IMG/VR virus record: IMGVR_UViG_3300014775_001342
Location: 1-29,660 of that record
Strand: one strand, 5' to 3'
Length of the DNA stretch: 29,660 bases
Source: a virus
Taxonomy: Duplodnaviria; Caudoviricetes
Shown: one piece after another, positions 7,876 to 25,211 of the stretch
Position numbering within the stretch: position 1 is the stretch's first letter
How the letters are laid out: every line of letters starts with the position of its first letter
Translations under genes and position numbers: made by a program
Notes under the pieces: generated by a model
Databases searched by the model: none
What the model was told of the DNA's origin: nothing
What the model saw: the letters and a program-made list of their open reading frames with translations, nothing else

Positions 7876-9492
7876 TTACCCCAAAAAGTTTATAGCAATT
7901 TTACCAGAACTTATCGTTGATCCAGTTTCACTAACCAAATGAACTACCGTTGCAGATGGAATAGAAACCTCTACTTCACCACCTCCAAGTGGTAAATATG
8001 CAATCAAAGATCCACCACTTGTTTTAAGTGACATAAATTCACCAATATCTTCTATTATTTGAATCTTTTTAACATCAGCAGCTAATGATGCTACGACTTG
8101 CACACCACCACCTGTAGTAATATTTGTAACAGATGTATCAACTAATCCAGAATCTAAAAAATCCACTGGAGAAAAAGAAGCATTCTGAACTACTTGGTCA
8201 CTAGCAAGCGTAACAGATAAACTGTTTGCTTGAGTTTGTTGCCCCAATGCCGCAGGTAATTTACCGTCAATACTTGTTGTATCTCCTGCAATAGTTGAAG
8301 CATCAGTTGCAATGCTCGAAGTATCTGCATCAATAGTCGTAAGCAATGCTTCCAAACCATCAATCATAGCTTCTTGCTCAGAAGATAAAACCACTGCCAT
8401 TGAATCAGCACTAGCTTTCTGCCCTAAAGTAGCAGGTAGCTTGCCGTTTATTTGCGTAGTGTTTATTGCCGTTCCTAATGTATTTGTAACTATATCTGTA
8501 GTATCACCATCTATGCTTGATAAAGATGAATCCATACTAGAAAGAATGGCTTCTTGTTCTGTGGCAAAAACTACCGCTATAGATCCTGCTTTTCCGAATT
8601 GTCCTAATGCTACCTTACCGTTAAGACTCGAAACTTCGGTTCTAATCGAGGTCGTGTCATTGTCGATGGAAGTGAGAGATGAACTCATACCAGAGAGAAT
8701 TGCCTCTTGTTCCGTAGAAAGCACTGTAGGTAACGAACTAGCACTAGCTTTCTGACCAAGTGAAGCAGGAAGTTTTGCATCAATACTTGTTGTATCTGAA
8801 TTAATAGCATCAAGAGCAGCGTTGTCTTCTGTTGATAAAGCAACTGGTAAAGAACTAGCCTCTGCTTTGCTACCTGCTGTGAATAATACTGTGCCATCAC
8901 CTAACGAGATAGAATCGTTTGTATGATCTGATGATATGTTGAGGTCATTTGCTGTTATATTTACATCACCAGTTATATCTGTAAGTTTTACTGGTAATGG
9001 ATCGTTATTTGCAGGAGTGACGGTATCTTCATTAACTAATACTAATGAACCGTCTTTTTGAAATGTAAGACCACCAAATGTAACAAATATATCACCTTCG
9101 GCATTTGTTCTAGGGTGAACAGGTCTTAATATGTCTATTTCATCACCTGCCATCGGTAATGGCTCAGATGACTTTATAGTTTCAGCTAAAACAATGGTAT
9201 CAGAGTCTAAAACCTCCCACACTCTTATTTGTCTATGCTGTTGGCTTCCATTTTTAAAGTGAATTAAATCACCTTTCATTGCGCCATGTGACATAACTGT
9301 AAGTTTGAATATATCGCCATTATCTTCTGTTATAACAGCGTCAATTAAGTCAGCATCGCTAATTATTTGGTTATACATTGAAACATTAACGTCTAATGCG
9401 TGTCGGTTTTCACCAACTGGTTGAATTGTAACAAATTCAGATTTTAGTCGTTCGTCTTTTTTCTGGGAAGGATAGCCGCTATCTGTTGCCAT
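7876..9492 (-). CDS. Repeat-containing fibre-like virion protein
   Basis: Five LGQKAxAxSLxVxL(S/A)xEQ-type repeats separated by S/T/D-rich heptad linkers; GGAG RBS. Confidence 0.7.
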   Translation of the reverse strand: MATDSGYPSQKKDERLKSEFVTIQPVGENRHALDVNVSMYNQIISDADLIDAVITEDNGDIFKLTVMSHGAMKGDLIHFKNGSQQHRQIRVWEVLDSDTIVLAETIKSSEPLPMAGDEIDILRPVHPRTNAEGDIFVTFGGLTFQKDGSLVLVNEDTVTPANNDPLPVKLTDITGDVNITANDLNISSDHTNDSISLGDGTVLFTAGSKAEASSLPVALSTEDNAALDAINSDTTSIDAKLPASLGQKASASSLPTVLSTEQEAILSGMSSSLTSIDNDTTSIRTEVSSLNGKVALGQFGKAGSIAVVFATEQEAILSSMDSSLSSIDGDTTDIVTNTLGTAINTTQINGKLPATLGQKASADSMAVVLSSEQEAMIDGLEALLTTIDADTSSIATDASTIAGDTTSIDGKLPAALGQQTQANSLSVTLASDQVVQNASFSPVDFLDSGLVDTSVTNITTGGGVQVVASLAADVKKIQIIEDIGEFMSLKTSGGSLIAYLPLGGGEVEVSIPSATVVHLVSETGSTISSGKIAINFLG

Positions 9493-9529
9493 TCTCTGCT
9501 CCTTGTGGGCTTCTGTGTAATGTCATTTT

Positions 9530-9558
9530 ATAGTATCAGGAATTGTGTGCCGTATCAA
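9530..9558 (-). promoter_or_regulatory. Sigma70-type promoter for the 9492 gene block
   Basis: TTGATA (9558-9553), 17-bp spacer ending in TGA (extended -10), TACTAT (9535-9530). Confidence 0.65.
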
Positions 9559-9562
9559 TAAC

Positions 9563-9594
9563 CCTGAAAAGGGGCGTTACCACCCCTAATCAGG
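9563..9594 (-). terminator. Intrinsic terminator after the haloperoxidase
   Basis: GGGGUG-GUAA-CGCCCC hairpin (GNRA loop) followed by UUUU; outer CCUGA/UCAGG pairing; just after the stop codon. Confidence 0.8.
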
Positions 9595-9601
9595 TAAAGG
9601 A

Positions 9602-11134
9602 CTATAGAGTAATCGTAGAACCGTCAAATCCAGTAAATACAATATCTCCAATAGCTTCGTTTTGTAACGCTTTTGAATCCTTGTAATACTGAATCGCAAC
9701 CTTCTCACCTAGTAATAGCTCAGAATCACTTCTATAATGCACTCCAGCATAGTCACGACCAAGCGCAACATTATGTGCTAGTTTATTGATCTCGCCGTGT
9801 ATTGTAATTTGTCCTGCATCGGCACCTGCATAGGCTTCTACGCTTAGACCATCACCTGCCGCTTGTCTCTCAGCAAGTCCAGTAGTTGACCATGCAGCAT
9901 CAGCAAGATAAATCTTAAGGATTGTAGCGCAAGCTCCTGAAATTGTTGCATGACCCGCTGGGTAAGCAGGGTGCGTTGGACTCCCCTCAGCATATTGTAA
10001 TGGAAGGAATGCTTTGTTCTCTCCACCTGCTGCAAGGTTAGCCGCTGCGATACTAGCAACAACTGCTGAGTTCTTAAGATCGGCGTGTACTGTTCCAACT
10101 GGTAAGTCACCGTCTAATTCTGCAACAACTCTAGCCGCTGTAGCTTCTGGACGTAATCTTAAGTGTTTTCTCCATTTCTGTACCCAAGCAGCCTTAAGAG
10201 CGTGTCTAGATACTTCTGCGATACCTGTAGTTAGCTCAACTGGACCACCTTGAGTAAGGAAAGCACCTTCATTTACTAAATCAGGGAAACCTGCATTTCT
10301 ACCAACACCTGCGTTAAGTAAAATTGCAGCAGCTTCATAAAAATGTTGGAACACCAAGTCAATGTGAACAGTAGATCCTAGTTGACGACCATTAAACATA
10401 TACTTAAGTACAGGATCAATAGTTTGAGCAACAGGCACGTTACCATTTTGAATATCAACAAAGTTTGCTTTAGTAATACCGTAAACACCAGTTTTAGTTG
10501 GTCCTTGTGGCTCATAAGCAAAGTTTCCTACACCAATAGTATGTAAGAATAGCTGAGAGATATAACCACCAACTGTACAACCTGGGGAAGAACCTCTAAA
10601 GAGAGTTTTAGCTGTAACTAATCCATTTTCTTTAGGTCCAACAAAGTCATCACCAAAAGCATTAATTGCGTCTAGTGCATCTTGGATCTCTTGAGAACCA
10701 TCTTCATAATCCTTGAATGGCTTTTCTCTAAGTAAATGCTTTGCATAAACTTCAACCATCTCAGCAGCGGTTTCACGACTGTTAAGCGCAGGAGCAGCAG
10801 CCATTGATAAACCTTCTGGATCTGCACCAGATAGTTCTAAACCTAGAGAACCTTGTGGTGATGCTTGCTTTCTAGTACCTGCTTTGTCTAGATCATCAAA
10901 ATCTGATTGTTTACCAGTTTCTAATGCTAGTTGTAGTTCTTTGATTCTTGATTCTTCGCACACCATAGTAGTTGCGTCATGAGTCATACCTTTAGAGTAC
11001 AAACCAACGTAAACGTCATTTTCAACGTCAGGATTTCTTACCTGACTTTCGTCTACCTCGATTGATCTTTTTGCGGCTTGCTCACTTCTACTTTTAAGCA
11101 ATGCGGATTTGATGTTCTTTACGTCTTTCTTCAT
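9602..11134 (-). CDS. Vanadium-dependent haloperoxidase (bromo/iodoperoxidase type, PAP2 superfamily)
   Basis: All three vanadate-binding motifs: ALKAAWVQKWRKHLRLRPE, EGSPTHPAYPAGHATISGACATILK, GEINKLAHNVALGRDYAGVHYRSD. Also the VBPO-type N-terminal elements YSKGMTHD and TLFRG...VGGYISQ. AGGAAGG RBS. Confidence 0.92.
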   Translation of the reverse strand: MKKDVKNIKSALLKSRSEQAAKRSIEVDESQVRNPDVENDVYVGLYSKGMTHDATTMVCEESRIKELQLALETGKQSDFDDLDKAGTRKQASPQGSLGLELSGADPEGLSMAAAPALNSRETAAEMVEVYAKHLLREKPFKDYEDGSQEIQDALDAINAFGDDFVGPKENGLVTAKTLFRGSSPGCTVGGYISQLFLHTIGVGNFAYEPQGPTKTGVYGITKANFVDIQNGNVPVAQTIDPVLKYMFNGRQLGSTVHIDLVFQHFYEAAAILLNAGVGRNAGFPDLVNEGAFLTQGGPVELTTGIAEVSRHALKAAWVQKWRKHLRLRPEATAARVVAELDGDLPVGTVHADLKNSAVVASIAAANLAAGGENKAFLPLQYAEGSPTHPAYPAGHATISGACATILKIYLADAAWSTTGLAERQAAGDGLSVEAYAGADAGQITIHGEINKLAHNVALGRDYAGVHYRSDSELLLGEKVAIQYYKDSKALQNEAIGDIVFTGFDGSTITL

Positions 11135-11146
11135 AACCCTTCCTTT

Positions 11147-12025
11147 TTAAATAGTTTGTGGTCCTAATCGTAGCATGATCAAAGACCTAGCGTTTATAGT
11201 AAAGTCTCCCACTGAAACTCTAACTTGTACTTCTAGATTCTCGCTCCCATTAAAAGATACTACAGCAGATAAAGCTAACAAGAAAACAAAATTTGAAGAA
11301 ACCGATTGAACTACTCTTTCCGTTCCTGAAACCTGTGTTCCACCCTTGTAAAAACTGAACCTGTTAAAAGCATTGTTGTTTTTACTACTTGCGTCAGCAT
11401 TAAAGTAAATGGCGTAATTTCCTGCTATTGGAGTAATTGAAAAATTAGGTATAGCTGAATCCATATTAGAGCTAGTCACATGGGAAACAGATGAATTTAC
11501 ATTGTAACTTAATATACCTGCTGCTTGAGCAATTTCAATACTAAACGGTGAAAATATGCCAACTGGACTACTGTTGTCTTGCAGTATTAACGATGTAACA
11601 GACTCTTGGGCTAATGTGCCAAGGGTTGTACCATCGCTGTATTTAACCATTATAGGCGCATCTGTTCTATTGTAAAGCTCATAGTTTGTGCCTATAGGTA
11701 TAGTCGTTGCATCTGGCAATATTATCGAGTAATTAACCTGCGTTCCTGTTACGAAATGAACTGATGTAGAGTTAGAGTTCAACAACAACATTCCATTATT
11801 ATTAGCTGTTGTAAATGTTGGGACAGTAATACTAGTTTTATTTGTTAGTTTTTTAACATTTTTAGCGTCATTGTCATTCATATCTAGATCGCCTTGCATT
11901 TTCCTTGAACCATCTAATTTCAAGAAGGTTAAATCCTCTGCAATTCTTTGCGCACTTTCATTGGCTAATTCTTTATCATCAGCTAACTCGGGCGAAATAA
12001 ATCTAGGTTTAATTAATGAAGCCAT
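11147..12025 (-). CDS. Fibre/spike-like virion protein
   Basis: FLKLDGSRKMQGDLDM fibre motif; IILPDATT beta domain; C-terminal beta-sandwich-like region. Confidence 0.65.
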   Translation of the reverse strand: MASLIKPRFISPELADDKELANESAQRIAEDLTFLKLDGSRKMQGDLDMNDNDAKNVKKLTNKTSITVPTFTTANNNGMLLLNSNSTSVHFVTGTQVNYSIILPDATTIPIGTNYELYNRTDAPIMVKYSDGTTLGTLAQESVTSLILQDNSSPVGIFSPFSIEIAQAAGILSYNVNSSVSHVTSSNMDSAIPNFSITPIAGNYAIYFNADASSKNNNAFNRFSFYKGGTQVSGTERVVQSVSSNFVFLLALSAVVSFNGSENLEVQVRVSVGDFTINARSLIMLRLGPQTI

Positions 12026-12026
12026 A

Positions 12027-12935
12027 TTATGATCTATACTTAAATCTTAATTCGTCACCAATTTGTATTTTCTGATTACCTGTTCCCACTAAAGTATTCA
12101 AAAATGTCACTTTGGCATTATCTACAATAAAATCTTCTGTCTCACCTTCAAAAATAGAAAGTCTATCAATATTCCCTATGACTGATCCTGTCTCTGGTAT
12201 TCTCTGTAACATGATAAAACCATTTGCAATTACAGTAGAATCAACCACTATCTTTTCGTCGTACCACACTATACTCTGTAGTTGTTGCACTTGCGACTCC
12301 GCTGCTGCTAGTTTTGCTTCTAGTGTGGCGTCTGCTAATATAGCTCTCTCTACCTCGGCGTTAATACTGTTTTGCAAAGCCTCGTCTGCTGCGATTCTTG
12401 CAGAAGTCTCAATTGCTAATTCACTGGTATGTGTACCTAACGCTGCATTGATTGCATCTTGTAAATCACTATCTGCATTCTGAAACGCTTCTACAATTTC
12501 AGTCAAAGAGTCCAAAGCACTTGGATCAATATTGCTTAGAATGTTATTGATTTGTTGCTGTAGGTTTTCATCTGCGGCTTGTCTTGTAGATGACTCTAAC
12601 ACTATGTCAGAGGTTAGCGCATCTATAAGTACCTGAAGGGCGTCATCTCTATCGTTTGATGTTGATTCTAAACTTACAATGTCATTAGCATTCTTGCTTA
12701 CAGATAATTCCAAAGCTGTGTCTGCTGCTATTCTGGCTGCTTCTTCTTGGCTAATATCAGCTTTAACTGCTGCTTCACCTGTAGCTAATTGCACTTTACC
12801 GTCACTATCTAGTTTAATTAGTTCTATATCGCCTAAGGCACCTTCTTGGATAATTGCTTGGTTGAGAAGAAGTCTTAGCTTTACGCCATCGACTGCCCCG
12901 TTTTCAATAAACTTCTTTTTTATTTGTGTAGCCAT
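12027..12935 (-). CDS. Coiled-coil fibre/whisker protein
   Basis: Repeated ExxARxAADxxLQ heptads and the DPSALDSLTEIVEA motif typical of phage fibres; GGAG RBS. Confidence 0.7.
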   Translation of the reverse strand: MATQIKKKFIENGAVDGVKLRLLLNQAIIQEGALGDIELIKLDSDGKVQLATGEAAVKADISQEEAARIAADTALELSVSKNANDIVSLESTSNDRDDALQVLIDALTSDIVLESSTRQAADENLQQQINNILSNIDPSALDSLTEIVEAFQNADSDLQDAINAALGTHTSELAIETSARIAADEALQNSINAEVERAILADATLEAKLAAAESQVQQLQSIVWYDEKIVVDSTVIANGFIMLQRIPETGSVIGNIDRLSIFEGETEDFIVDNAKVTFLNTLVGTGNQKIQIGDELRFKYRS

Positions 12936-12944
12936 TTATGTCTC

Positions 12945-13373
12945 CTACTCCCCAAGTAGTGTACTGTATATAATGATTATCTCATCCCCTATCTCAAAAA
13001 AATCTTCTAAACCCAACCCTGTAAATGATACCCCATTCTGCGTTCTATTATAATCTATATCTTCTATTTGCTGTATTCCACCAACAGGAAAAACAGAAAG
13101 CGGAAAGTTTCCAAGAGGTTCTGCTTCTAAGCCTATATTATTTGCATCTATGATTGCTTGATCGACTATTATTTTTTCTTTTATTTCTAAAACCCTGTTT
13201 GTTTCAATATGTGATTCAATCTGTTTTAAGGCTTCTACAACATTTGCATCATTTACAATGATTGACCCATTAAAATCTGCTAATTGCGTGTCACCTTCGA
13301 CAATACCTACGGCTTTGCATATCTGGTCAACCAGTTTGAGGGGAGATTTGAAACTTCGTAATACTGTAGCCAT
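12945..13373 (-). CDS. Virion accessory protein; C-terminal domain paralogous to that of 12027-12935
   Basis: EKIIVD...DY...VSF...EIGDEIIIIY aligns with EKIVVD...DF...VTF...QIGDELRFKY. Confidence 0.6.
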   Translation of the reverse strand: MATVLRSFKSPLKLVDQICKAVGIVEGDTQLADFNGSIIVNDANVVEALKQIESHIETNRVLEIKEKIIVDQAIIDANNIGLEAEPLGNFPLSVFPVGGIQQIEDIDYNRTQNGVSFTGLGLEDFFEIGDEIIIIYSTLLGE

Positions 13374-13374
13374 T

Positions 13375-13932
13375 TCAACCTAACTGTTCAATGTCTATAG
13401 TTTGAATACCGTTTGTACTTACTAAATACAACGATACCTCTGGTCCTACATCTCCGTATTGCCGTTCCTCCTTAGAAGCGATAGTTATTCCTTCTGTTAT
13501 TGGAGCAGTATTATCTGAATTAACTAAAATATCTCTATTGCTATTATTCTGTATTATCAAAATACTTCTATTATTTACATTAGGTATCTCAGTCCACGCT
13601 GTATCTGGCACAACTAAAGCAAAATGATCGTGAAATCGTGCTATGTCTCCAACTGGAGTTCCTGTTCCAACTGGTTGTGCCGCTGCATCTACATTGTCTT
13701 GGCAATCTTGTGTCCAAGTATCAATTGTTCTTTCTGTTGTGATTAACCTATTGCTTGTATTATATCCATAAGTAATTAAGACGCATGGACCACCGACAAC
13801 AACTTTTGGTTCTGCTCTATACTCAAAAGCTATCCTCCCATTAACATAAACATTACAAATTTTAGACAACTTACCTTGGTCATCTAATCTTAGTAATTCT
13901 TCGATTATGTGTAATGGTAAACTTTGTGTCAT
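13375..13932 (-). CDS. Putative virion structural protein
   Basis: 4-nt overlap with the upstream gene; beta-rich C-terminal domain (NRSILIIQNNS...GITI). Confidence 0.55.
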   Translation of the reverse strand: MTQSLPLHIIEELLRLDDQGKLSKICNVYVNGRIAFEYRAEPKVVVGGPCVLITYGYNTSNRLITTERTIDTWTQDCQDNVDAAAQPVGTGTPVGDIARFHDHFALVVPDTAWTEIPNVNNRSILIIQNNSNRDILVNSDNTAPITEGITIASKEERQYGDVGPEVSLYLVSTNGIQTIDIEQLG

Positions 13933-14288
13933 CTAGCATCTCTGAAACAAACCGCAACGTGCAAGTCTGAAACCTTTTCTTTCTCTTTGCCTTTCACTAA
14001 GGCAGACTCATCATAAATTACTCTAAAGTGAGCAAGCATATGCTCTTTCATGTCATGAAAAAATAATTCTTCCTCAAATTCCATTTTTGTGTCAGTAATA
14101 TCTTTCCAATCTTTTCCGTTTGGCGAAGTTTGAAATTTTAACTTAACAGCCTTTGATGGTTTGCCTTTTAACTTTGCAAAGATTGTAAAATTTTCTTGTC
14201 TTTGATTAAAAGAACAAGCCTTCTTACCTTTTTCGCCACGTTGACCTGTTTCGGTATCTATTAAAATATTTTGCGCTACACTTGCCAT
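13929..14288 (-). CDS. Putative small virion protein
   Basis: AGGGGGG RBS; LKFQTSPNGKDWKDI motif of small beta-sandwich phage proteins. Confidence 0.55.
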   Translation of the reverse strand: MASVAQNILIDTETGQRGEKGKKACSFNQRQENFTIFAKLKGKPSKAVKLKFQTSPNGKDWKDITDTKMEFEEELFFHDMKEHMLAHFRVIYDESALVKGKEKEKVSDLHVAVCFRDAR

Positions 14289-14300
14289 AATTCCCCCCTG

Positions 14301-14324
14301 TAGAAAGGGATTCCGAAGAATCCC
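14301..14324 (-). terminator. Intrinsic terminator/attenuator
   Basis: GGGAUUC-UUCG-GAAUCCC perfect hairpin with a C(UUCG)G loop followed by UUUCUA. Confidence 0.8.
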
Positions 14325-14329
14325 ATAAC

Positions 14330-14683
14330 TTAAAACTTATCTGATCGCTTACGCTTAATAACTAAAACATCAAAATCACCTTCGGCAGGAGTAGTTTCTG
14401 CTAGGTCGCTATGACATAGAACCTGTATAGTGCTATTGCTTACAGACTCTACTCTTGAAATAACACCTGCTGTTTTAGATGAAATTATTCCAACCAAATC
14501 TTCTTCTGATGCTTGGTCAAGCAAAGTCAATGTATAGTCACCAACTCCATTTGCCACAACTGAAAATTGCAGTGAATCCATACCTTCTAGTGAAGGTGTA
14601 CCTAATCCACTTTTAGATACATTATATAAGATGACTCCACGCTGAACCGCATGAATACATCTTTCAATCGTTTTTGTAGTCAT
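14330..14683 (-). CDS. Putative capsid decoration protein
   Basis: Directly after the major capsid gene and before a terminator; AAGGAG RBS; beta-rich, 117 aa. Confidence 0.55.
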   Translation of the reverse strand: MTTKTIERCIHAVQRGVILYNVSKSGLGTPSLEGMDSLQFSVVANGVGDYTLTLLDQASEEDLVGIISSKTAGVISRVESVSNSTIQVLCHSDLAETTPAEGDFDVLVIKRKRSDKF

Positions 14684-14695
14684 TGTAACTCCTTA

Positions 14696-14763
14696 TAGAA
14701 ACGGACAGGGCGCCCAATCCTAGACAACCCTGCCCAAAGTGAGGTGGGGAGATTCCTCACACC
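14696..14763 (-). terminator. Double hairpin after the major capsid gene (leaky terminator or RNA stabiliser)
   Basis: GUGAGG/CCUCAC stem (14739-14760) and GGGCAGGG/CCCUGUCC stem (14703-14735) followed by GUUUCU. Confidence 0.5.
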
Positions 14764-15948
14764 TTACACTGCTAAATTAGAAAGAACACCGTGAGCAGTA
14801 GGAGTAATGTAGTTTTCATAGTAACCACCATATCTCGCTTCATACTCATCTGAGCCACTCTTTCTTAAAAATACTGTTCCATCATCGTCAAACCAACCAA
14901 ACCCGGGTCTGTGGTGACACTCGATGAAGTTATCATTAAGGAAATACATTCTGTCTTCTTCACAAAAACGATCAGGGAATACACCAACTGCACCTCTTGT
15001 AGACATGAACTCTAGACCTTCAAACATGATAACGCCTTTTAACTTCTTGTCTCTTGCAGGTAGTGAATATCTCTTATGATCTTCGATTTCGTTCATAAGC
15101 TTTCTGTACTGAGTATATGAAGTAACAATTAAGTTAGGCGCACGACCAAACTTTCTTTCTACTTCAAGCATAACTTCGTTCATTCTGTCAGGAGTAATAC
15201 CTGCACCACTTGCATTGAATTGACTTGCTTGCCATCTTCTTGCAACTGGAATGTTGTATAATGAACCAGTAGTTGCATCAAGAACACCTTTTAATCCTTG
15301 AGGATCGTTGTTCTCTGAACCTTGCATGAAAATATCATCTGTACCAGCAGGTACTTGTGAACCAGTAACTCTAGTAACAACAACTTCTCTTGCAGAAGGA
15401 GTAACAGAGTCAACACTGAAAAGATCGCTGTTTCCAGATTCAATATTAACTAAGTCTTTTTCTTCAAAGTTTGCTTCTTTCCATGATGCTGCTGAAATTA
15501 CCAATGTATAGTTTCCACCACCATTGTCAGTAACAGAGTCAATGATACCAAGTTTACCGTCACCAGATCCAAAAAGGATTCTAGAGCAGTTTCTCATGTA
15601 AGACTCAACACATTTTTGTACAGTTTCTTTAGTAGCACGAACAAATGCACCCTTGTCATCTGCCGATGCTTTAATTGCTTCACGCTCAATTTCACAAGTA
15701 GCATAAACTTTCTTAGAAAGAATAAGAGCGTCACCATAGTTTGCAACACCTGCTACTGGTAAAGAACCAGAACCAACACCACCACTAAAAGAAAGCGGAG
15801 TCGCTACAAATCGTTGCTTACCTGTGAAGTCATATCTTTTCTTAATACGACCATGAAGCACGTTTGCACTGTTGTACATATTTTCAGATTTTTTGTAGTA
15901 ATTGATTTTAAAGAGGTTTGTAGCCTCTGATAAACTAAATGCAGTCAT
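14764..15948 (-). CDS. Major capsid protein (HK97 fold)
   Basis: 394 aa after portal and scaffold; PQGLKGVLDA...LYNI...W, PNLIVTS and MYFLN segments typical of podovirus capsid proteins; GGAAGG RBS. Confidence 0.88.
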   Translation of the reverse strand: MTAFSLSEATNLFKINYYKKSENMYNSANVLHGRIKKRYDFTGKQRFVATPLSFSGGVGSGSLPVAGVANYGDALILSKKVYATCEIEREAIKASADDKGAFVRATKETVQKCVESYMRNCSRILFGSGDGKLGIIDSVTDNGGGNYTLVISAASWKEANFEEKDLVNIESGNSDLFSVDSVTPSAREVVVTRVTGSQVPAGTDDIFMQGSENNDPQGLKGVLDATTGSLYNIPVARRWQASQFNASGAGITPDRMNEVMLEVERKFGRAPNLIVTSYTQYRKLMNEIEDHKRYSLPARDKKLKGVIMFEGLEFMSTRGAVGVFPDRFCEEDRMYFLNDNFIECHHRPGFGWFDDDGTVFLRKSGSDEYEARYGGYYENYITPTAHGVLSNLAV

Positions 15949-15973
15949 TTCTAAACCTTCCTAGTAAAATTTG

Positions 15974-17197
15974 TTAGTATAAATCATCGTAGTCGTTAAA
16001 CGACTCAATATGGTCATTATCAGCAGGGTCTTCGCTTCCGTAATATTTGTAATTACCCTTATTTTCTGGTGCTAGTCTTGCTTGACCTGTCTTTTGCGCT
16101 CTCTCTAGAAGTTCCCTGTCTTTTTGCTCTATGCCAAGCACATCTTTGAGCATTTCAACAGCTTCCTCGTCGCTCATTGACGGATCTTCTGCAAAAATAG
16201 TCGCCATTTCAACAACCAAATCATCATTGTTCACAGCTTCACTGTCTAAAGAACCAATGAGATGTTCAGACTTTTCAATTAGCGGCTTCATAAAAGCATG
16301 ATTTACCACTAATTCCTCAGTTATCCCTTCTTCACCTAATTCTTGCAACTCGTTATAGCTGCTAACAAAATCTTCCCGACTCACACCTCGGCTTCCCATC
16401 ATTTGCTCCAACGCAGCTTGAGACTCCCTTTGGCTTACCTCTTGCTGTTGTAGCTCCTGCATGGACCGCATTTGTTCCCTCAGGAATTGAGCTTCTTCGG
16501 ACGCTTGCTCTGCCTGTATCTGTTCTGGCGTCATATCAGCCATTCTGATAAAGTCAGGAGTAAGCGATTCCATAAGGGCTCTTTTAAAAGAATACTTATT
16601 TCCACCGCTTTGCGCAACTAGAAATTCTATAGCCTCATAAGCGTTTCCTTGCTGTATCATTTCGTGCATTTTGCCCAAATCGTTATACAGCCTATCTCTT
16701 TGCTCTACATACTCTTGTAATTCATAATCTTTTTCTTCTAACTCTGCTTGCCATTCTTGCATTTCAGAGTCTAACTCTTGGAATTTCTTATCCCATGCAA
16801 CTTGACCTGCTTCATGGTTTCTGAGATCAGATAGTTTCCTGTACTCTGTTTCGCCATTAACAATAACAGGTATTTCCGTGTCAGGATCTAATTCTAATTC
16901 GTTTTCGCCAAGCTTTGCTTTTAAAAACTTAATTTCTATTTTTTCTTCGTCTTTTTCAGCAGTATGCTCAATTTCTTTATCAGCAACTTCTCTTTCTTCT
17001 GTCTCAGCTTTTCCTTCGACTTCTGGCTTATCCTCTGGTTTCGCTTCAACTTTTTCTTCTCTACTTTCAACGTACTGCTCTCTTGATCTTTCTACAGATT
17101 CAAAATCATCAAAATCTGGTCCTTGACCGCCACTAACCGTGATCGTTCCATCTGGATCTCCGTCCATTCTTGATTCAATTACTTCTGTATCGCTCAT
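15974..17197 (-). CDS. Capsid scaffolding protein
   Basis: Very acidic E/Q-rich coiled coil, VIVNGETEYRKLSDL motif, between portal and capsid genes. Confidence 0.75.
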   Translation of the reverse strand: MSDTEVIESRMDGDPDGTITVSGGQGPDFDDFESVERSREQYVESREEKVEAKPEDKPEVEGKAETEEREVADKEIEHTAEKDEEKIEIKFLKAKLGENELELDPDTEIPVIVNGETEYRKLSDLRNHEAGQVAWDKKFQELDSEMQEWQAELEEKDYELQEYVEQRDRLYNDLGKMHEMIQQGNAYEAIEFLVAQSGGNKYSFKRALMESLTPDFIRMADMTPEQIQAEQASEEAQFLREQMRSMQELQQQEVSQRESQAALEQMMGSRGVSREDFVSSYNELQELGEEGITEELVVNHAFMKPLIEKSEHLIGSLDSEAVNNDDLVVEMATIFAEDPSMSDEEAVEMLKDVLGIEQKDRELLERAQKTGQARLAPENKGNYKYYGSEDPADNDHIESFNDYDDLY

Positions 17198-17205
17198 AAC
17201 TCCCC

Positions 17206-19302
17206 CTATGATTGTTTACTTACTGGTGTACTTAGTTCTTGTACAGGAACTCCTTCTTTCATTGGTTTAGACTTTGATTCCTGCGGTGGTGCTGCCATCT
17301 GTTGCAACATCTGCAATTCATCTGATGGAACTTTGAAAAACAAAGGAAAATGATCGTTCATCATTAACTTTTGTCTAAATAAAGCATTTTTCTTTGCTCT
17401 AACCCACATATGATATTCAGTAACTGTTAAATGCTCAATCAATGCCTGTTGCCTATCACTTGGTACTTCCTCTTTAAATTGTCTCTCTTGCAACTTTTGT
17501 AAATGTATATCGTAGTGAGTAAGTAAATCCTCGTATGGTTTTGGTTCCTCTACTTTCTCCCCTGCCAATATAGATTCGTTTTCACTCTCTGCTGACTTTA
17601 CAGCGATTGTTACAATGTCTTTAAAAGACTCATCTGTTCCAAGGTCAAGCATTTCTACAACTTGCTTTTGAGAAATCATATTAGGAAATCCCATATTCAA
17701 ATCTAATAACGATTGTATTTTTGCAGGTTTACTATCTGGTAAAGATGAGGTGTTTTGTATTTTCACATCGTATTTTAAATCCTTACTACTTCTCTTAAAA
17801 GATTTAAGCATATAAGAATTATCTCTACCTAAGATTCTAATAGTTCTGTTGTCATCGTCACGATAGTATTGCTTCATAATATCTATTGTATCTTTAGCAA
17901 CTTCTTTTATTATAGTGTTGCGTTTTGCAACCCCATTATTTTCTCTTTCTTGTTCCTGCTCTAATAGGAATTGCAATGCAACCCCTGCTCTAATACCTGC
18001 AGGTGGAGTCCCTCTCGATATGCCATGAATACCAGATAGTTTTTGAATATTTACTTCCAACTTCTCCATATAGCTGAATACTTCTGGACTTGTCGGACTT
18101 GTATTCTCTAATCTCGGTGGAACGCCGCCTTTATATTCTACGACTGTCACCTCATTGTTTAGTGCGGATATTTTACACGCTCCTGCTGGCATGACCCATT
18201 TCGGAGCAGATGCGAGACCATGGTTTCTGGCAATTCCACTAGCTAGATTGTTGTAATGACGCTGTAACTGCCTAACTTGCGAGATAAAGCTTCTTGCGTG
18301 AAGTTCGGTTGGTACGTCTATATCCGTCAATCTTCTAAATGGCAGCCTTTCGTGCTTCAACGGATAATCCTCCATGCTTAAGACCGCATCTTTTACAAAT
18401 ACAATTTTCAATCCTTTTGGAAGAAATTTTGTTGGTTTGTGCCAGAATGTTTTTATGCAAATATTGCCAGTACTCTTAGTTTCAGCAATAGAACCAGTGT
18501 CGTAATGATGATGACCTTGTTCACGGATAAATTCCTGCTTCTTTGGATAAAGTGCTTTGACTTCTTCTTTTGGTTTATACTCAAGTTCAGTAACATTGCA
18601 AACTTTATGCCAACTATTTACCTCTAACTCTGGATACACTCTGTCAGGTGCTAGGATTTCGTAATCAACGTCACCGACTTTAACTGGAAACTCTAAATTG
18701 ATTGTTTCTGATTGGTCAGTTTTTATGCTGACTTTATTATTGCTTGCCCTTCTTTGGAAGTAAGGATCTACTTGTCCTATTTCATCATTCCAATATGTTT
18801 TAATATATGCTTCGCCAAAAATATAAGCAGTTCTTTGTAACTCTCTGAAAAAACCATCAATATCAACTTCTTGCCATCGAGTATCTACAAGCATTTTGTA
18901 TGTTTTCGATAATATCTTGTCGTTATACTCATCGGCATTTTGAGGCAATACTGCAATAGCAGGTCTGAACCGTGACATTTTGGCAGTTTTATTCTCAACC
19001 ATATCATAGATATGATTTACAACAACCTTAGGATTACGAACGCTTCTGTCACCAGAGTCTCGTCTAAAATCTTGATTTCTAGTTTCCTGACTTCTGTAAT
19101 GTATGCCTTTGTATAAGGCTAATTGCTCACGGTATATTCTAATTCTTGAATCGGCTTTCTTCACCTTGTTATCAAAGTCTTTATTTAGCCATTTTAATAC
19201 TTCTCTTTCGTCATCAAGCTTTATAGCCCATATAGGAGGAACGTCTTTATATTCAAGCTCCCCTTCTAACTCAAAATCATCAAAAGTAGTCCCGTAACTC
19301 AT
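17206..19302 (-). CDS. Portal protein
   Basis: 698 aa after terL; VVVNHIYDMVE, QLQRHYN, LSGIHGISRG...AGVAL motifs of P22-like portals. Confidence 0.88.
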   Translation of the reverse strand: MSYGTTFDDFELEGELEYKDVPPIWAIKLDDEREVLKWLNKDFDNKVKKADSRIRIYREQLALYKGIHYRSQETRNQDFRRDSGDRSVRNPKVVVNHIYDMVENKTAKMSRFRPAIAVLPQNADEYNDKILSKTYKMLVDTRWQEVDIDGFFRELQRTAYIFGEAYIKTYWNDEIGQVDPYFQRRASNNKVSIKTDQSETINLEFPVKVGDVDYEILAPDRVYPELEVNSWHKVCNVTELEYKPKEEVKALYPKKQEFIREQGHHHYDTGSIAETKSTGNICIKTFWHKPTKFLPKGLKIVFVKDAVLSMEDYPLKHERLPFRRLTDIDVPTELHARSFISQVRQLQRHYNNLASGIARNHGLASAPKWVMPAGACKISALNNEVTVVEYKGGVPPRLENTSPTSPEVFSYMEKLEVNIQKLSGIHGISRGTPPAGIRAGVALQFLLEQEQERENNGVAKRNTIIKEVAKDTIDIMKQYYRDDDNRTIRILGRDNSYMLKSFKRSSKDLKYDVKIQNTSSLPDSKPAKIQSLLDLNMGFPNMISQKQVVEMLDLGTDESFKDIVTIAVKSAESENESILAGEKVEEPKPYEDLLTHYDIHLQKLQERQFKEEVPSDRQQALIEHLTVTEYHMWVRAKKNALFRQKLMMNDHFPLFFKVPSDELQMLQQMAAPPQESKSKPMKEGVPVQELSTPVSKQS

Positions 19303-19380
19303 TTTTACCCCTTAAGATAGGCGAAACCTCATTGCCTAAACCAGTACAGCCCTATCTGCTATCTGTACCTTCCCCACATT

Positions 19381-19593
19381 TTATAGAGAATCGTATTCTT
19401 CTTCTTCCCAACCCTCAGAAAGCTTTTCAGTCAGTGTCTTTGTGTCCTGTGCATCAGCCATTGTGACACCTCTCCATTCTATTTTATGCGTAGATAGACG
19501 ATGCCCTATCCATAAGGATAATGCCGCTATCGACACAACAAAATTTACTACGGTCAATACAAGACAAGCTATTAACATTGCGTCATTATTCAT
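19381..19593 (-). CDS. Small single-TM membrane protein (start revised to ATG 19593)
   Basis: GGGGAGG RBS before MNNDAML; hydrophobic segment LIACLVLTVVNFVVSIAALSLWI; overlaps the terL stop. Confidence 0.7.
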   Translation of the reverse strand: MNNDAMLIACLVLTVVNFVVSIAALSLWIGHRLSTHKIEWRGVTMADAQDTKTLTEKLSEGWEEEEYDSL

Positions 19594-21067
19594 AAAAATC
19601 CTCCCCAAGAACTTTGACTGTCCAATCACCATGTTCTTTATAATTTAACCTATCATCTTGCATAGTGACAAATCTTGGCTTTTGAACTTCATCCCTAGTG
19701 TCAATTCGCTCATGACTTGGCACCTGAGTGTAATAGTTTGCACCATTTGTATATCTTTCACAATCAAGTAAATGGTCATTCTCTTTAGGTATTTTACCAT
19801 TTTTATCTTTAATGTAATTAACGGTTTCAAAAATCAACTTTTCGCAACCAGATGAACATAACCAGAAACCATACAGCATCTGATCTTTGATTAATGATAT
19901 ACCGTGCTCTTTTTTGTCTCTTTGTTTATGGGTGGGCGCAAAGAAGATACCATTACCTTCGCCAAATACAAGCTCAGTAGCGTCATGTATTTCCGTTTGA
20001 AACCATTTTTCAGCTTCATCGTATGTAAAATTCCATTTATCATATCTAGGATTCCATTCTAATAACTTTTCACTGATTTTCTTCCACATTCTTCTGGTAG
20101 AAGTCTCTTTAGTATCAGATACATATAGCTCATCAACATGGTAAACAACTCTAGTATATCTATTGATTGCTGTAAATAATACGGCAAAAACAGATGCAGA
20201 AGCAGGGTCGGCAGTACAATACCAATCTAGAGCCCTAAATTCACGCTGTATGCGTTTTTTCATCTCTTCCTTAGGCAATACGTGCTTTTCCCTGTCAAAC
20301 ATCGGATAGATGGCATTTTTACCGCCTTTTACACGTTTTGCTTCGTACTCTCGATACCAAACATCTAACTCACCTCTAAGCCTTAACCTTTCCTTAGTTT
20401 TCGCAAGCCATTCTTTACTTATGTGAGGATTGGAAGATGATGGATAATTAAACCATGCACCATCTGGATCTATCATGACGCTATCGGCTAATTTTATGTA
20501 ATGATTATCGTCACTTTCTGGAGGAGTCCCAATTACTAGTAGCGGTGCAGTGTAAGTCGCAAGGTTTGGCTCCATTCTTTCGTGAAATTTAGGGTGGTGA
20601 TCTTTAAACTCGTCATAAGCCATAAAATGAGGGTTAATACCATCATATGCGATATAATTGTCACTACCATCAAGTTTTATAAAACTGCCATTAAAACCAA
20701 ATTTTATACGCATCTCAGAATTGTTAATACTGATCTTGTACTTATTTCTCATTTGCTTATTTAAAAAGAACTGTAGTCGGTTATTAGCCCATATCAGTTC
20801 TTTCGCCTGTTTTAAAAATGGAGCAATAAAGTAACACGCTGCGTTTGGTGTTGTCATAGCTGCTCTATACAGGCAATAAATAACAAAGTCGGTTTTGCCG
20901 TATTTACGTCCACACTCTAAGAAAATAAATTGCTTACCGTCATAGAATAATGCTTTTCCTGGGCTTAACTGTCCTTCGTGCGGTGACCAAATATCATGCA
21001 AGTCTTTCAGTATTGCCGCTTGAAGTTCTAGTGCGTTTAGTAGTTGTTTTTTCTCGTTTTCAGCCAT
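19586..21067 (-). CDS. terL: Terminase large subunit
   Basis: Walker A CGRKYGKT, Walker B FMAYDE, coupling motif IGTP, nuclease acidic residues TADP and NDHLLDCERY. Confidence 0.95.
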   Translation of the reverse strand: MAENEKKQLLNALELQAAILKDLHDIWSPHEGQLSPGKALFYDGKQFIFLECGRKYGKTDFVIYCLYRAAMTTPNAACYFIAPFLKQAKELIWANNRLQFFLNKQMRNKYKISINNSEMRIKFGFNGSFIKLDGSDNYIAYDGINPHFMAYDEFKDHHPKFHERMEPNLATYTAPLLVIGTPPESDDNHYIKLADSVMIDPDGAWFNYPSSSNPHISKEWLAKTKERLRLRGELDVWYREYEAKRVKGGKNAIYPMFDREKHVLPKEEMKKRIQREFRALDWYCTADPASASVFAVLFTAINRYTRVVYHVDELYVSDTKETSTRRMWKKISEKLLEWNPRYDKWNFTYDEAEKWFQTEIHDATELVFGEGNGIFFAPTHKQRDKKEHGISLIKDQMLYGFWLCSSGCEKLIFETVNYIKDKNGKIPKENDHLLDCERYTNGANYYTQVPSHERIDTRDEVQKPRFVTMQDDRLNYKEHGDWTVKVLGEDFYE

Positions 21068-22854: not shown

Positions 22855-23145
22855 ATGGAAACAATTACAAACAAAACTCAAGGGCTTATTCAAAGAACCA
22901 AAAAGCAATGGAAAGATGCAGCTTCACAAAATGAAACGATCATCAAGCTAAAAACACGGGCAAACACTGAAAAAATACGTTTAAAATTTGAAGTGAATGA
23001 ACTACATGAAGCGTTGCTTCTTGCTTATTATGAAGACAATAAAACATACAATGACCGTTTAGACGATGCTATCGAGCGACTACAAAAATCACTAACTGAC
23101 TTAATTGATACTCGCAAGTTAATCAAATACATTGAGAGCAAGTAA
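22855..23145 (+). CDS. Hypothetical early protein (coiled coil)
   Basis: CAGGAG RBS; TAATG-coupled to the next gene. Confidence 0.7.
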   Translation: METITNKTQGLIQRTKKQWKDAASQNETIIKLKTRANTEKIRLKFEVNELHEALLLAYYEDNKTYNDRLDDAIERLQKSLTDLIDTRKLIKYIESK

Positions 23146-23744
23146 TGTTACACGTTACAACTAAAATGAATGGTAAAATGGATATGATGCAAAGCATAAG
23201 CAGTGGGTTTTCTGAGGCATGTTATAAACGTGCTTCAGATCCCGACTCGCCTTGTCATGGTTGTTATTCAATTAAAATGATGAAACGCTACAAAAATGCG
23301 TCAATATGCTTTGAAAATAATTCAGATATTTTAAAAGGTAGAATCTTGGAAAGGCACGAACTTCCAACCATAAACGCTGCCTTTTTTCGTTTTAACGCCC
23401 ATGGTGAAATTGAAAATAAGACGCAAGTTTTGAACTTTTTTAATATTTGTAAAAAGAATAAATTCACTAATTTTGCATTGTGGACACATGACCCGAAAAT
23501 AGTGCATCAAGCGTTAAAAGAACAAAAAAAGCCTAAAAATTTACGGTTGATTTATTCAAGCCAAAAGTTAAACAAAATTGATAAATTGCCTAAAAATTTT
23601 GACAAAGTTTTTACCGTTTTTACGAAAAAATACGCTGAAAGTAACCAAATTGGTATCAACTGCGGGCATAAAAAATGTATTGAATGCTTACAATGCTATA
23701 AACCAAACGACAAAAATACTTTTATTAACGAGCTAAAAAAATAG
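23145..23744 (+). CDS. Gp88-like Cys-rich protein
   Basis: NGKM, C-x9-CxxCY, FRFNAHGE, FALWT and C-terminal C-x4-CxxCxxCY match the recalled phage Gp88 family pattern. Confidence 0.7.
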   Translation: MLHVTTKMNGKMDMMQSISSGFSEACYKRASDPDSPCHGCYSIKMMKRYKNASICFENNSDILKGRILERHELPTINAAFFRFNAHGEIENKTQVLNFFNICKKNKFTNFALWTHDPKIVHQALKEQKKPKNLRLIYSSQKLNKIDKLPKNFDKVFTVFTKKYAESNQIGINCGHKKCIECLQCYKPNDKNTFINELKK

Positions 23745-23752
23745 GAGAAATT

Positions 23753-23971
23753 ATGGGAAGTAGAACAAGCGCAAAAACTAAAACAGTCAAAAGTGAGTAT
23801 ATTTTAAACGGAAAAGTTAGAATTACTTTTAAAAATGGTTCTTACTTTGTTGATTATGGAATTATAAAAGATTCTTTTTTAGTAACAAATAGACATGATT
23901 TTTATATGTCATTAATAAGCAATATGTCACACTACTACGCTGAAAAAATAACAAACCATTTTTTTAAATAG
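23753..23971 (+). CDS. Hypothetical early protein
   Basis: TAGGAG RBS. Confidence 0.7.
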   Translation: MGSRTSAKTKTVKSEYILNGKVRITFKNGSYFVDYGIIKDSFLVTNRHDFYMSLISNMSHYYAEKITNHFFK

Positions 23972-23979
23972 GAGAAATT

Positions 23980-24144
23980 ATGCAAACAAAAGAACAACTA
24001 CAAAAGACAATAGACTATGCGCTTAAACGTGCTGAAGTTTACAGAACAACCAAAGACGGAAGTTATGGCGCAGCGTTAGACGCCTATGGTTATTTTACAG
24101 CATTAAAAGAGTTAACAAAGCTAAACGAAAAGGAAAAGAAGTAA
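23980..24144 (+). CDS. Hypothetical 54-aa early protein (below the ORF-track cutoff)
   Basis: TAGGAGAAATTATG start; MQTKEQLQKTIDYALKRAEVY...KEKK; stop TAATG-coupled to 24144. Confidence 0.8.
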   Translation: MQTKEQLQKTIDYALKRAEVYRTTKDGSYGAALDAYGYFTALKELTKLNEKEKK

Positions 24145-24389
24145 TGTCATGTAAATATTGTAAAAACTTAGAACAAAATAGCACTGACTTTTTTAAGTCA
24201 AGAGCAATAGACTTCGACGACTTTACGCTTAATAAAAGTGACTTTATAGGCGACATATCCCAAAGTGTAGCGATTGACTTACAAGACCACTTGGAAAGCT
24301 TAGGTTTTGATTGTGAGATTATTCAAGACACGAACGAACAAGATCAAATATGTGACAATGACGATCATTGCGCTATTAAAAAACTTTAA
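24144..24389 (+). CDS. Hypothetical acidic protein, possible Zn binder
   Basis: N-terminal CKYC and C-terminal C-x4-HC; coupled start. Confidence 0.65.
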   Translation: MSCKYCKNLEQNSTDFFKSRAIDFDDFTLNKSDFIGDISQSVAIDLQDHLESLGFDCEIIQDTNEQDQICDNDDHCAIKKL

Positions 24390-24403
24390 AACAGGGGAAA
24401 ATT

Positions 24404-24697
24404 ATGGATATTTTAAGTTTATTCCACGCAACACAAAAGCAACAAAAAGAGTTAATGCAATTTATTGACGACTCGATTGACACGGTAAAAATGCATGAAA
24501 TTATTGACGAAAAATATAGCAAAAAAATAAATTTATCACTTCTGGAGCATAAAGATAATCTTTTCCAGATGAGGGCATTACTAAAAAAACAAATGGAAGA
24601 AAGTAAAAAGTTTTTAGACAATGATATCAATAACTATTACGTCGCATTTAAAAAGAATCTAGAAAATAATCACGTCGAATTATGGGGAAATTATTAA
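24404..24697 (+). CDS. Hypothetical early protein
   Basis: CAGGGG RBS. Confidence 0.7.
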   Translation: MDILSLFHATQKQQKELMQFIDDSIDTVKMHEIIDEKYSKKINLSLLEHKDNLFQMRALLKKQMEESKKFLDNDINNYYVAFKKNLENNHVELWGNY

Positions 24698-24900
24698 TGT
24701 TAACTTTAGAGGATAAAGAAAGAATCAAAAAAAGAACTTTAGAGCAAGACAAGCAAGCTTTTAATTTATGGCAAAAAGTAAACAATGATAAGCATTTAAC
24801 TTTGCTTGATGCGTGGCTTTGCGCTTGCAATTACAAAGAGGAACAAAACAAAGAGTTGTTAGGTTTATTAATGCAAATTGAAAGGAATAAAAAACTATGA
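24697..24900 (+). CDS. Hypothetical early protein (start revised to ATG 24697)
   Basis: TAATG coupling with GGGG upstream; same frame as track ORF 24682-24900. Confidence 0.65.
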   Translation: MLTLEDKERIKKRTLEQDKQAFNLWQKVNNDKHLTLLDAWLCACNYKEEQNKELLGLLMQIERNKKL

Positions 24901-25211
24901 ATGAAAACAAAGAAAATTGGGATTTTTTAGGACAAACAAAAACAATTAAGGTCCGTAAAAGAAAAGCGGGTAAGTTAATCCGTTTTATAATGGATAATGA
25001 CTGGCAAGCTTTAAACCGTCGCATAAAAGTAAGACGCTCGAAACATAGAAACGGCATGTTTTATGAATTTATTAATCCAATTGATAAGGAAATCTTTTGG
25101 CGTGTATTCAACCGTAAATCAAAAGAAAAGTTAATATCTCAAGATAAACTAGACTTTTTTAAGCTTTGCGGTTTACGTTTCTATTTAGTTAGAAGTGAAG
25201 AAGAAATATAA
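24897..25211 (+). CDS. Hypothetical basic protein
   Basis: ATGA overlap, AAGGA RBS, K/R-rich; followed by a terminator. Confidence 0.65.
   Translation: MNENKENWDFLGQTKTIKVRKRKAGKLIRFIMDNDWQALNRRIKVRRSKHRNGMFYEFINPIDKEIFWRVFNRKSKEKLISQDKLDFFKLCGLRFYLVRSEEEI

Follow-up and report, generated by a model that had tools for sequence, protein, structure and literature searches.

Why would a small podophage carry a gene for a vanadium-dependent haloperoxidase behind its capsid gene, is the product an enzyme of this kind, and what could it do for the virus? The gene lies in the 29,660-nt IMG/VR record IMGVR_UViG_3300014775_001342, which was analysed at full length and is called the window below. It is linear, comes from an SU10-like podophage and has a CheckV completeness of 79%.

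The gene and its host phage

The haloperoxidase gene occupies positions 9602..11134 on the minus strand and encodes a 510-aa protein of 54 kDa with an ATG start. A check of the first 70 residues revealed neither a Tat motif nor a hydrophobic stretch, in agreement with the initial annotation, which had described a 510-aa ORF without a signal peptide, starting 12 nt after the upstream gene and preceded by a good ribosome-binding site. The 12 nt between the stop codon of the upstream 292-aa gene and the ATG (11135..11146, minus strand) hold the strong ribosome-binding site AAGGAAGG. The terminator proposed behind the gene stood in part: a hairpin is present at 9563..9594 (minus strand; -23.5 kcal/mol, z -4.3), and the terminator scan did not call it because it is followed by four T only. 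The gene has a GC3 of 0.23 and phage-like codon use, and dN/dS was 0.07-0.15 in eight of nine homologue pairs, with one pair saturated and dS near saturation. The gene is intact and under purifying selection, with a dN/dS of about 0.1.

The virion operon was recovered by Pfam and PHROGs, which called the major capsid protein, the portal and the large terminase in a head module at 14764..21067 (minus strand), together with a scaffold that is putative and assigned by position, and also an adaptor in the flanking head/tail operon. Further members of the variable cassette that follows the capsid gene (11147..14683, minus strand) are ORFs of 117, 119, 185, 142, 302 and 292 aa, which are likely accessory virion proteins. 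The cassette is closed by a 538-aa gene (7876..9492, minus strand) with homologues in 36 of 73 loci that encode a related capsid protein. The slot between the capsid gene and this 538-aa gene (9493-14763 in the window; L203-L269 among the relatives) varied from 0.1 to 6.7 kb and contained 63 protein groups over the 36 loci plus the window. This slot is an accessory hot spot, and judged by eye it was mostly filled in the relatives by decoration- or fibre-like proteins. The 292-aa gene had been taken for a fibre gene, which found no backing: it gave no informative Pfam or PHROG family (a weak Glyco_hydro_92N match had an E value of 0.005) and no relatives in IMG/VR, and its look-alikes in the Atlas were viral and unnamed. 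No host was found in this way: matches to the terminase and capsid proteins in cultured phages reached only 23-33%, and the labels on relatives of the portal and amidase were few and mixed. Elsewhere in the window, an opposite-strand block of lower GC (about 0.31) lies at 22855-25211 (plus strand), with a GP88-like gene (PF17338) at 23145-23744.

Fold and vanadate site

A sequence search of the PDB returned ten matches, all of them algal or cyanobacterial vanadium bromoperoxidases (VBPOs), with E values of 1e-38 to 2e-48. The AlphaFold2 model had a pLDDT of 96.6, and Foldseek aligned it to VBPOs over the full-length helical fold of 500-600 aa with TM scores of 0.84-0.89. PAP2 acid phosphatases have a domain of about 200-250 aa and a K-x6-RP spacing in motif 1. 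They share the three-motif phosphate/vanadate site with the phage protein, as do the fungal and actinobacterial vanadium chloroperoxidases (VCPOs) and the Zobellia vanadium iodoperoxidase (VIPO), whereas the structural comparison gave a TM of 0.22 or less over the phage query and E values of 2e-3 or worse for all three. Membership in the acid phosphatases was rejected on a Pfam PAP2 score of 19.3 bits, below the cut-off of 27.2, on the K-x7-RP spacing of the phage protein, and on Foldseek E values of 0.17 or worse. Membership in the VCPOs or in the flavobacterial VIPOs was likewise rejected (TM 0.22 or less, profile E 0.017 or worse). At the level of sequence and predicted structure, these comparisons confirmed the original assignment of a protein built like the algal and cyanobacterial VBPOs, with their fold and full vanadate site, rather than a PAP2 phosphatase.

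The three motifs of the vanadate site were found where they had been placed, with a correction to motif 1, which is spaced K-x7-RP as in VBPOs (1QI9, K341...R349) and not K-x6-RP. Motif 1 (10148..10186, minus strand) contains W317, K320 (at 10177) and R328-P329 (at 10153-10148), and W317 occupies the second-shell position of Am R425 and Cp R397. Motif 2 (9950..9973, minus strand) contains H388 (at 9973) and P392-A393-G394-H395 (at 9961-9950), and motif 3 (9725..9757, minus strand) contains R460 (at 9757), the predicted vanadate-binding histidine H466 (at 9739) and D470 (at 9727); a 2-residue gap makes the alignment column of D470 untrustworthy for sequences beyond the phage clade. K320, R328, H388, G394, H395, R460 and H466 align with the site of 1QI9, and the vanadate ligands K320, R328, G394, H395, R460 and H466 also align with 7QVW. 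All seven residues were kept in 58 of 59 representatives of the phage clade described below. H388 was kept in all 59; it aligns with H411 of 1QI9, which we take to be the second active-site histidine. A393 replaces the serine of the algal enzymes. Alanine at this position was rejected as a sign of a shift to iodoperoxidase activity, since it occurs in 50 of 57 GTDB relatives and in AmVHPO (5LPC) and no literature support was found.

The haloperoxidase is predicted to dimerise. The homodimer model scored 0.88 compared to 0.00 for the best control, the runs agreed on at least 97% of contacts, and the pLDDT was at least 92. When the same mark was applied to 30 solved pairs and 23 single chains, 20 of the former and 1 of the latter attained it, and the score expresses likeness only, because similar dimers are already solved. 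Residues 8-29 fall in the predicted interface, and the N-terminus was for this reason rejected as a capsid-targeting tag.

A phage clade of signal-less enzymes

Among the best 120 of 1,568 matches in the protein search, 119 lay outside the window's own cluster, at 44-85% identity, and nearly all were unnamed. A search of IMG/VR with the homologue alignment gave 38 loci, of which 12 were 43-76% identical, including one complete 33.8-kb genome. GTDB gave 253 confirmed stretches, and the top identity among the best 80 of 253 that were kept was 42%. Seven distant matches of about 30% identity were found on plasmids, and none among the 50,697 INPHARED records of cultured phages. In a FastTree phylogeny of 148 representatives, taken at 80% clustering with sequences shorter than 420 aa removed, the window fell in a clade of 59 rows with a support of 100 that contained none of the 57 GTDB rows, and a 42-row IQ-TREE agreed on this clade with a support of 99. 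The description 'phage-only' holds just for the clade rows with loci, because many rows are proteins without context, and there were two exceptions, the diatom-labelled protein described below and a partial 74% homologue labelled as a Flavobacteriales MAG on a 1,023-bp contig. By a simple heuristic, an export signal (Tat motif or hydrophobic leader) was present in 0 of 58 non-diatom clade members compared to 24 of 57 GTDB relatives. The phage versions had a median length of 515 aa compared to 586 aa for the cellular ones, and CheckV puts the genomes of the carrier phages between about 34 and about 370 kb.

P0110 (L074:28-1839), a 603-aa protein that bears the label of the diatom Corethron pennatum, nests inside the phage clade and has a hydrophobic N-terminus and a serine in motif 2. 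A position outside the clade was not rejected (AU p 0.055), and a phage-to-diatom transfer or contamination are both possible. Many giant-virus contigs (L013-L038, with BFVD matches) encode proteins of 30-35% identity with an intact site that branch apart from the phage clade, and a 40% identical sister version was found on viral contigs of high GC (59-64%) whose size CheckV estimates at roughly 520 kb (L012, L018 and L020). In L046 two enzyme genes stand in tandem (2-1108 and 1239-2801), the second with an asparagine for the predicted vanadate-binding histidine and a PSAH motif 2; a similar loss was seen in P0101 and in the giant-virus locus L033. A Gp23 search in five records gave no matches, and the controls also gave none.

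An accessory gene exchanged between phages

None of the 73 IMG/VR loci that encode a related capsid protein shows the haloperoxidase gene, and this includes the 36 closed by the 538-aa gene. A search of whole records found it in none of 25 capsid relatives, 17 of which were near-complete (at least 90%), and in five of five controls; the 25 were picked for length, plus the two closest relatives, which are uninformative on absence because their records end before the slot closes. The same capsid-fibre arrangement, which was to be looked for among homologues, was not kept. The complete 33.8-kb phage L008 has the same backbone as the window (terminase 42%, portal 35%) and carries a 55% identical copy at the far end of the virion operon. 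A sister relation of this copy to that of the window was rejected (p 2e-8), and this podophage apparently gained the gene separately. The nearest copies sit on other phage backbones. L039, with an 86% identical gene, has the same hairpin core behind it followed by a different gene than in the window, and in L001 (76%) the haloperoxidase precedes head-tail adaptor, tail and tape-measure genes. The haloperoxidase gene is an accessory gene and not a core virion protein of this podophage group.

Its patchy presence, its own terminator-like hairpin and its movement between unrelated phages are traits of a moron-type gene. A sigma-70-like site matching at 11 of 12 positions was found at 11676-11649, inside the upstream gene; the total of 43 such sites compares with 45 expected by chance. 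In L064 (4810-6530), a near-identical unit of sigma-70-like promoter and hairpin flanks the enzyme gene on both sides, as if the gene had entered by recombination between repeated units.

Genomic contexts and expression timing

The context survey covered 30 distinct loci (90% clusters), of which 22 were readable and eight were too short or unannotated. Sixteen of the 22 had virion genes beside the haloperoxidase, across podo-, sipho- and T4-like backbones (12 recognised by PHROG, HMM or BLAST, two of them via near-identical loci, and four judged by eye on their resemblance to these 12). The other six (L004, L005, L007, L009, L051 and L064) were non-structural, with replication or stress genes, and they show that the enzyme can do without virion neighbours. 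The earlier suggestion of a virion-associated enzyme is thus in keeping with the 16 contexts, and is weakened by these six and by the 0 of 25 capsid relatives, which argue against a conserved part of the virion. Copies in jumbo phages lie among stress and metabolic genes for ClpP, Hsp20, GroEL, a member of the IMPDH/GMP-reductase family and PsiE, the last of these three genes upstream of the haloperoxidase in L009. In L047 and L049, the enzyme gene is followed by a long series of repeat-like ORFs on the opposite strand, in which lengths of 74 and 102 aa alternate.

A hairpin directly behind the gene was seen by eye in about 22 of 29 loci with downstream sequence. No promoter would fit into the 12-nt spacer, and transcription of the gene therefore probably continues from the virion operon. 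The haloperoxidase ranked fourth of the 26 window genes in codon bias toward the capsid gene. The motif TAAATA, which we take to be the core of the T4 late promoter, was found upstream of the gene in 11 of 34 loci. It lay within 90 nt upstream in six of six loci whose other genes use TAAATA at least twice, compared to a background of 26 of 96, in a subset that was chosen post hoc and in which four of the six loci are related. Half of these six loci are non-structural contexts, and several jumbo-phage copies lie behind the motif. Operon position, codon bias and the late-promoter motif in relatives agree with the late expression that had been proposed, and the gene is likely expressed late and strongly. 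In L005 (8411-12590), the enzyme gene and the one after it share an identical 30-nt upstream leader, TATAAATA. Neighbouring genes in L005 start with short K..LFE/YEE motifs, presumably resembling T4 capsid-targeting leaders, and the enzyme itself lacks one.

Proposed function and alternatives

Tentatively, and with slightly less than even confidence, we favour an enzyme of VBPO type without an export signal that would be made late and act, likely as a free dimer, by using H2O2 to oxidise bromide or iodide at about the time of lysis. The gene would be transcribed together with the capsid genes as far as the hairpin that follows it, and the product, lacking the Tat route used by many cellular relatives, would stay cytoplasmic and meet seawater bromide mainly at lysis. 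Full activity would be expected at and after lysis, because phosphate competes with vanadate in the cytoplasm and seawater supplies bromide and trace vanadate. Vanadate on H466 would then react with H2O2 and yield free HOX. Since the enzyme needs no cellular reductant, it could clear peroxide around the released progeny, with HOBr or HOI spent on organics of the lysate, including 3-oxo-AHL where present. HOBr can damage virions, which counts against this reading. The title of a work cited in the accessible part of PMC13198595 speaks of virucidal activity of a vanadium chloroperoxidase mutant. The family chemistry itself, uptake of H2O2 by the vanadate-bound enzyme and oxidation of halide to free HOX, is described in the excerpt of PMC8407142, and seawater bromide is about 1 mM (PMC8213229, excerpt). 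A diatom haloperoxidase inactivates AHL quorum signals (PMC3917277, excerpt), and the phage enzyme may do so by analogy. Any gain after lysis would be shared in part with others and gives weaker ground for selection.

The 16 virion-side contexts and the slot of decoration- or fibre-like genes fit equally well with an accessory virion protein, on or in the particle, that clears peroxide, brominates or cross-links particle proteins, or, during adsorption, targets the cell surface or a biofilm, a reading that is possible and on balance doubtful. It also draws on the missing export signal, on a two-gene island in L047 and L049 whose other, small gene matches a 'virion structural protein' PHROG, and on a relative of the 302-aa protein adjacent to the enzyme in 4 of 31 loci (L003, L039, L045 and L075). 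However, 8 of the 73 capsid-related loci, none of which has the enzyme, also encode a member of this 302-aa family, and the family was rejected as a dedicated partner; its tip domain is 21-28% identical among enzyme-linked copies (65% for L039) compared to 33% to unlinked ones. Moreover, no docking domain has been added, the phage versions are shorter than the cellular ones, residues 8-29 are taken up by the predicted interface, and unrelated capsids would all have to accept one closely similar protein (70-86%). We regard as unlikely the bolder proposal that unrelated aquatic phages swap a plug-in virion VBPO, with free particles catalysing reactive bromine from seawater peroxide and bromide and thereby hardening or shielding themselves, or disarming quorum signals or biofilm at attack. 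Action inside the infected cell late in infection, either to remove peroxide or to halogenate one particular molecule of the host or phage, with incidental release at lysis, would give a benefit private to the phage, and a haloperoxidase has been proposed as a ROS sink in algal viral infection (excerpt of PMC8213229). The cytoplasmic location, the likely late expression and the jumbo-phage copies among stress and metabolic genes agree with it. Nevertheless, phosphate in the cytoplasm and a shortage of free bromide or vanadate would limit activity there, no conserved substrate-supplying or partner gene lies nearby, and we hold this to be quite unlikely.

The shared phosphate/vanadate site could also serve a repurposed phosphatase that works without vanadium. 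Vanadium haloperoxidases and acid phosphatases share an ancestor (PMC10427571, excerpt), and the weak PAP2 match and the PsiE gene of L009 point the same way. Against it stand the sub-threshold PAP2 score, the second histidine kept throughout the clade and the retention of the whole 500-residue VBPO scaffold where a 200-aa enzyme would be a cheaper route, which makes a phosphatase very unlikely. Finally, the absence of IMG/VR relatives for the 292-aa gene and the short contig labelled Flavobacteriales might suggest an assembly chimera or a stray cellular gene. This is barely conceivable given the phage-like GC3 and codon use, the 12 IMG/VR loci with 43-76% homologues, one of them a complete genome, and a best GTDB match of 42% among the best 80 of 253; in addition, L039 independently ties its 86% homologue to the 302-aa family and the same hairpin.

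Relation to known enzymes and significance

The two VBPOs of Ascophyllum nodosum (I, 1QI9; II, 5AA6) have the same fold as the phage protein (TM 0.89, rmsd 2.6-2.9 Å), the same K/R/H/H/R/H site, an invariant aspartate (D259 in the phage protein, D278 in the algal enzymes) and a tryptophan at position 317; a dimer is predicted for the phage protein. The identity is about 28%, alanine replaces Ser416, and unlike the algal proteins the phage protein is virus-borne, lacks an export signal and is a predicted enzyme only. The Corallina VBPOs (1QHB and 1UP8) and AmVHPO of Acaryochloris marina (5LPC) gave the top sequence scores and have the same motif flanks; they are dodecamers (PMC8407142, excerpt), are longer by about 90-150 residues and have an arginine in place of W317. 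According to the excerpt of PMC11871015, AmVHPO is a working bromoperoxidase that brominates and weakly chlorinates, and a tryptophan at the second-shell position marks the chlorinating Ci and An enzymes. The same excerpt reports that R397W raised chlorination in Cp, whereas R425W made little change in Am (10% compared to 8%). By analogy W317 may bear on chlorination, with an effect of tryptophan that differs between enzymes. Giant-virus proteins listed as 'PAP2' or uncharacterised (Sylvanvirus A0A3G5AI90, Hokovirus A0A1V0SGK0 and Yasminevirus A0A5K0U6L7) resemble the phage protein in structure (TM 0.78-0.93), with 22-30% identity, separate branches and no annotation as haloperoxidases.

The open literature, with most subscription journals outside the coverage, held no report of a virus-encoded vanadium haloperoxidase. 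The excerpt of PMC8407142 gives algae, fungi and bacteria as sources of vanadium haloperoxidases, and that of PMC11312541 mentions only bacterial ones, near phage-associated integrases. By term search, a 2026 halogenase survey (10.64898/2026.01.20.700248) did not mention virus, viral or phage, the accessible text of PMC13198595 did not mention virus, and that of a jumbo-phage paper (PMC12619734) did not mention peroxidase, PAP2 or vanadium; the gene tables of an ocean AMG survey (PMC11360552, available in part) could list such genes under PAP2. For the suggested phage-directed halogen chemistry, a precedent exists in VirX1 of cyanophage Syn10, likewise a phage-encoded halogenating enzyme (PMC8407142, excerpt), with an unrelated fold and with flavin instead of vanadate and H2O2. 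What is known already is the VBPO kind of enzyme and a phage halogenase of another class; what is new here is the small podophage carrier, the signs of late expression, and data that point to an optional gene passed between phages. The suggested marine origin has support from labels on relatives ('marine metagenome' for L061, 'TARA' for L068 and P0076) and none from the window itself.

The enzyme, compact at 510 aa, should be simple to express for use as a biocatalyst. Its gene takes up 4% of the genome of a phage of about 37 kb, an outlay that implies a real benefit. The locus belongs to a large, conserved branch without export signals that is found almost only on phage or unassigned contigs, next to separate giant-virus branches. 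Whether halogenated compounds arise at viral lysis is a question already posed for an algal virus (PMC8213229, excerpt). If the proposed function is true, viruses would count among the marine producers of reactive bromine and iodine, and halogenated compounds released at viral lysis would have a testable origin.
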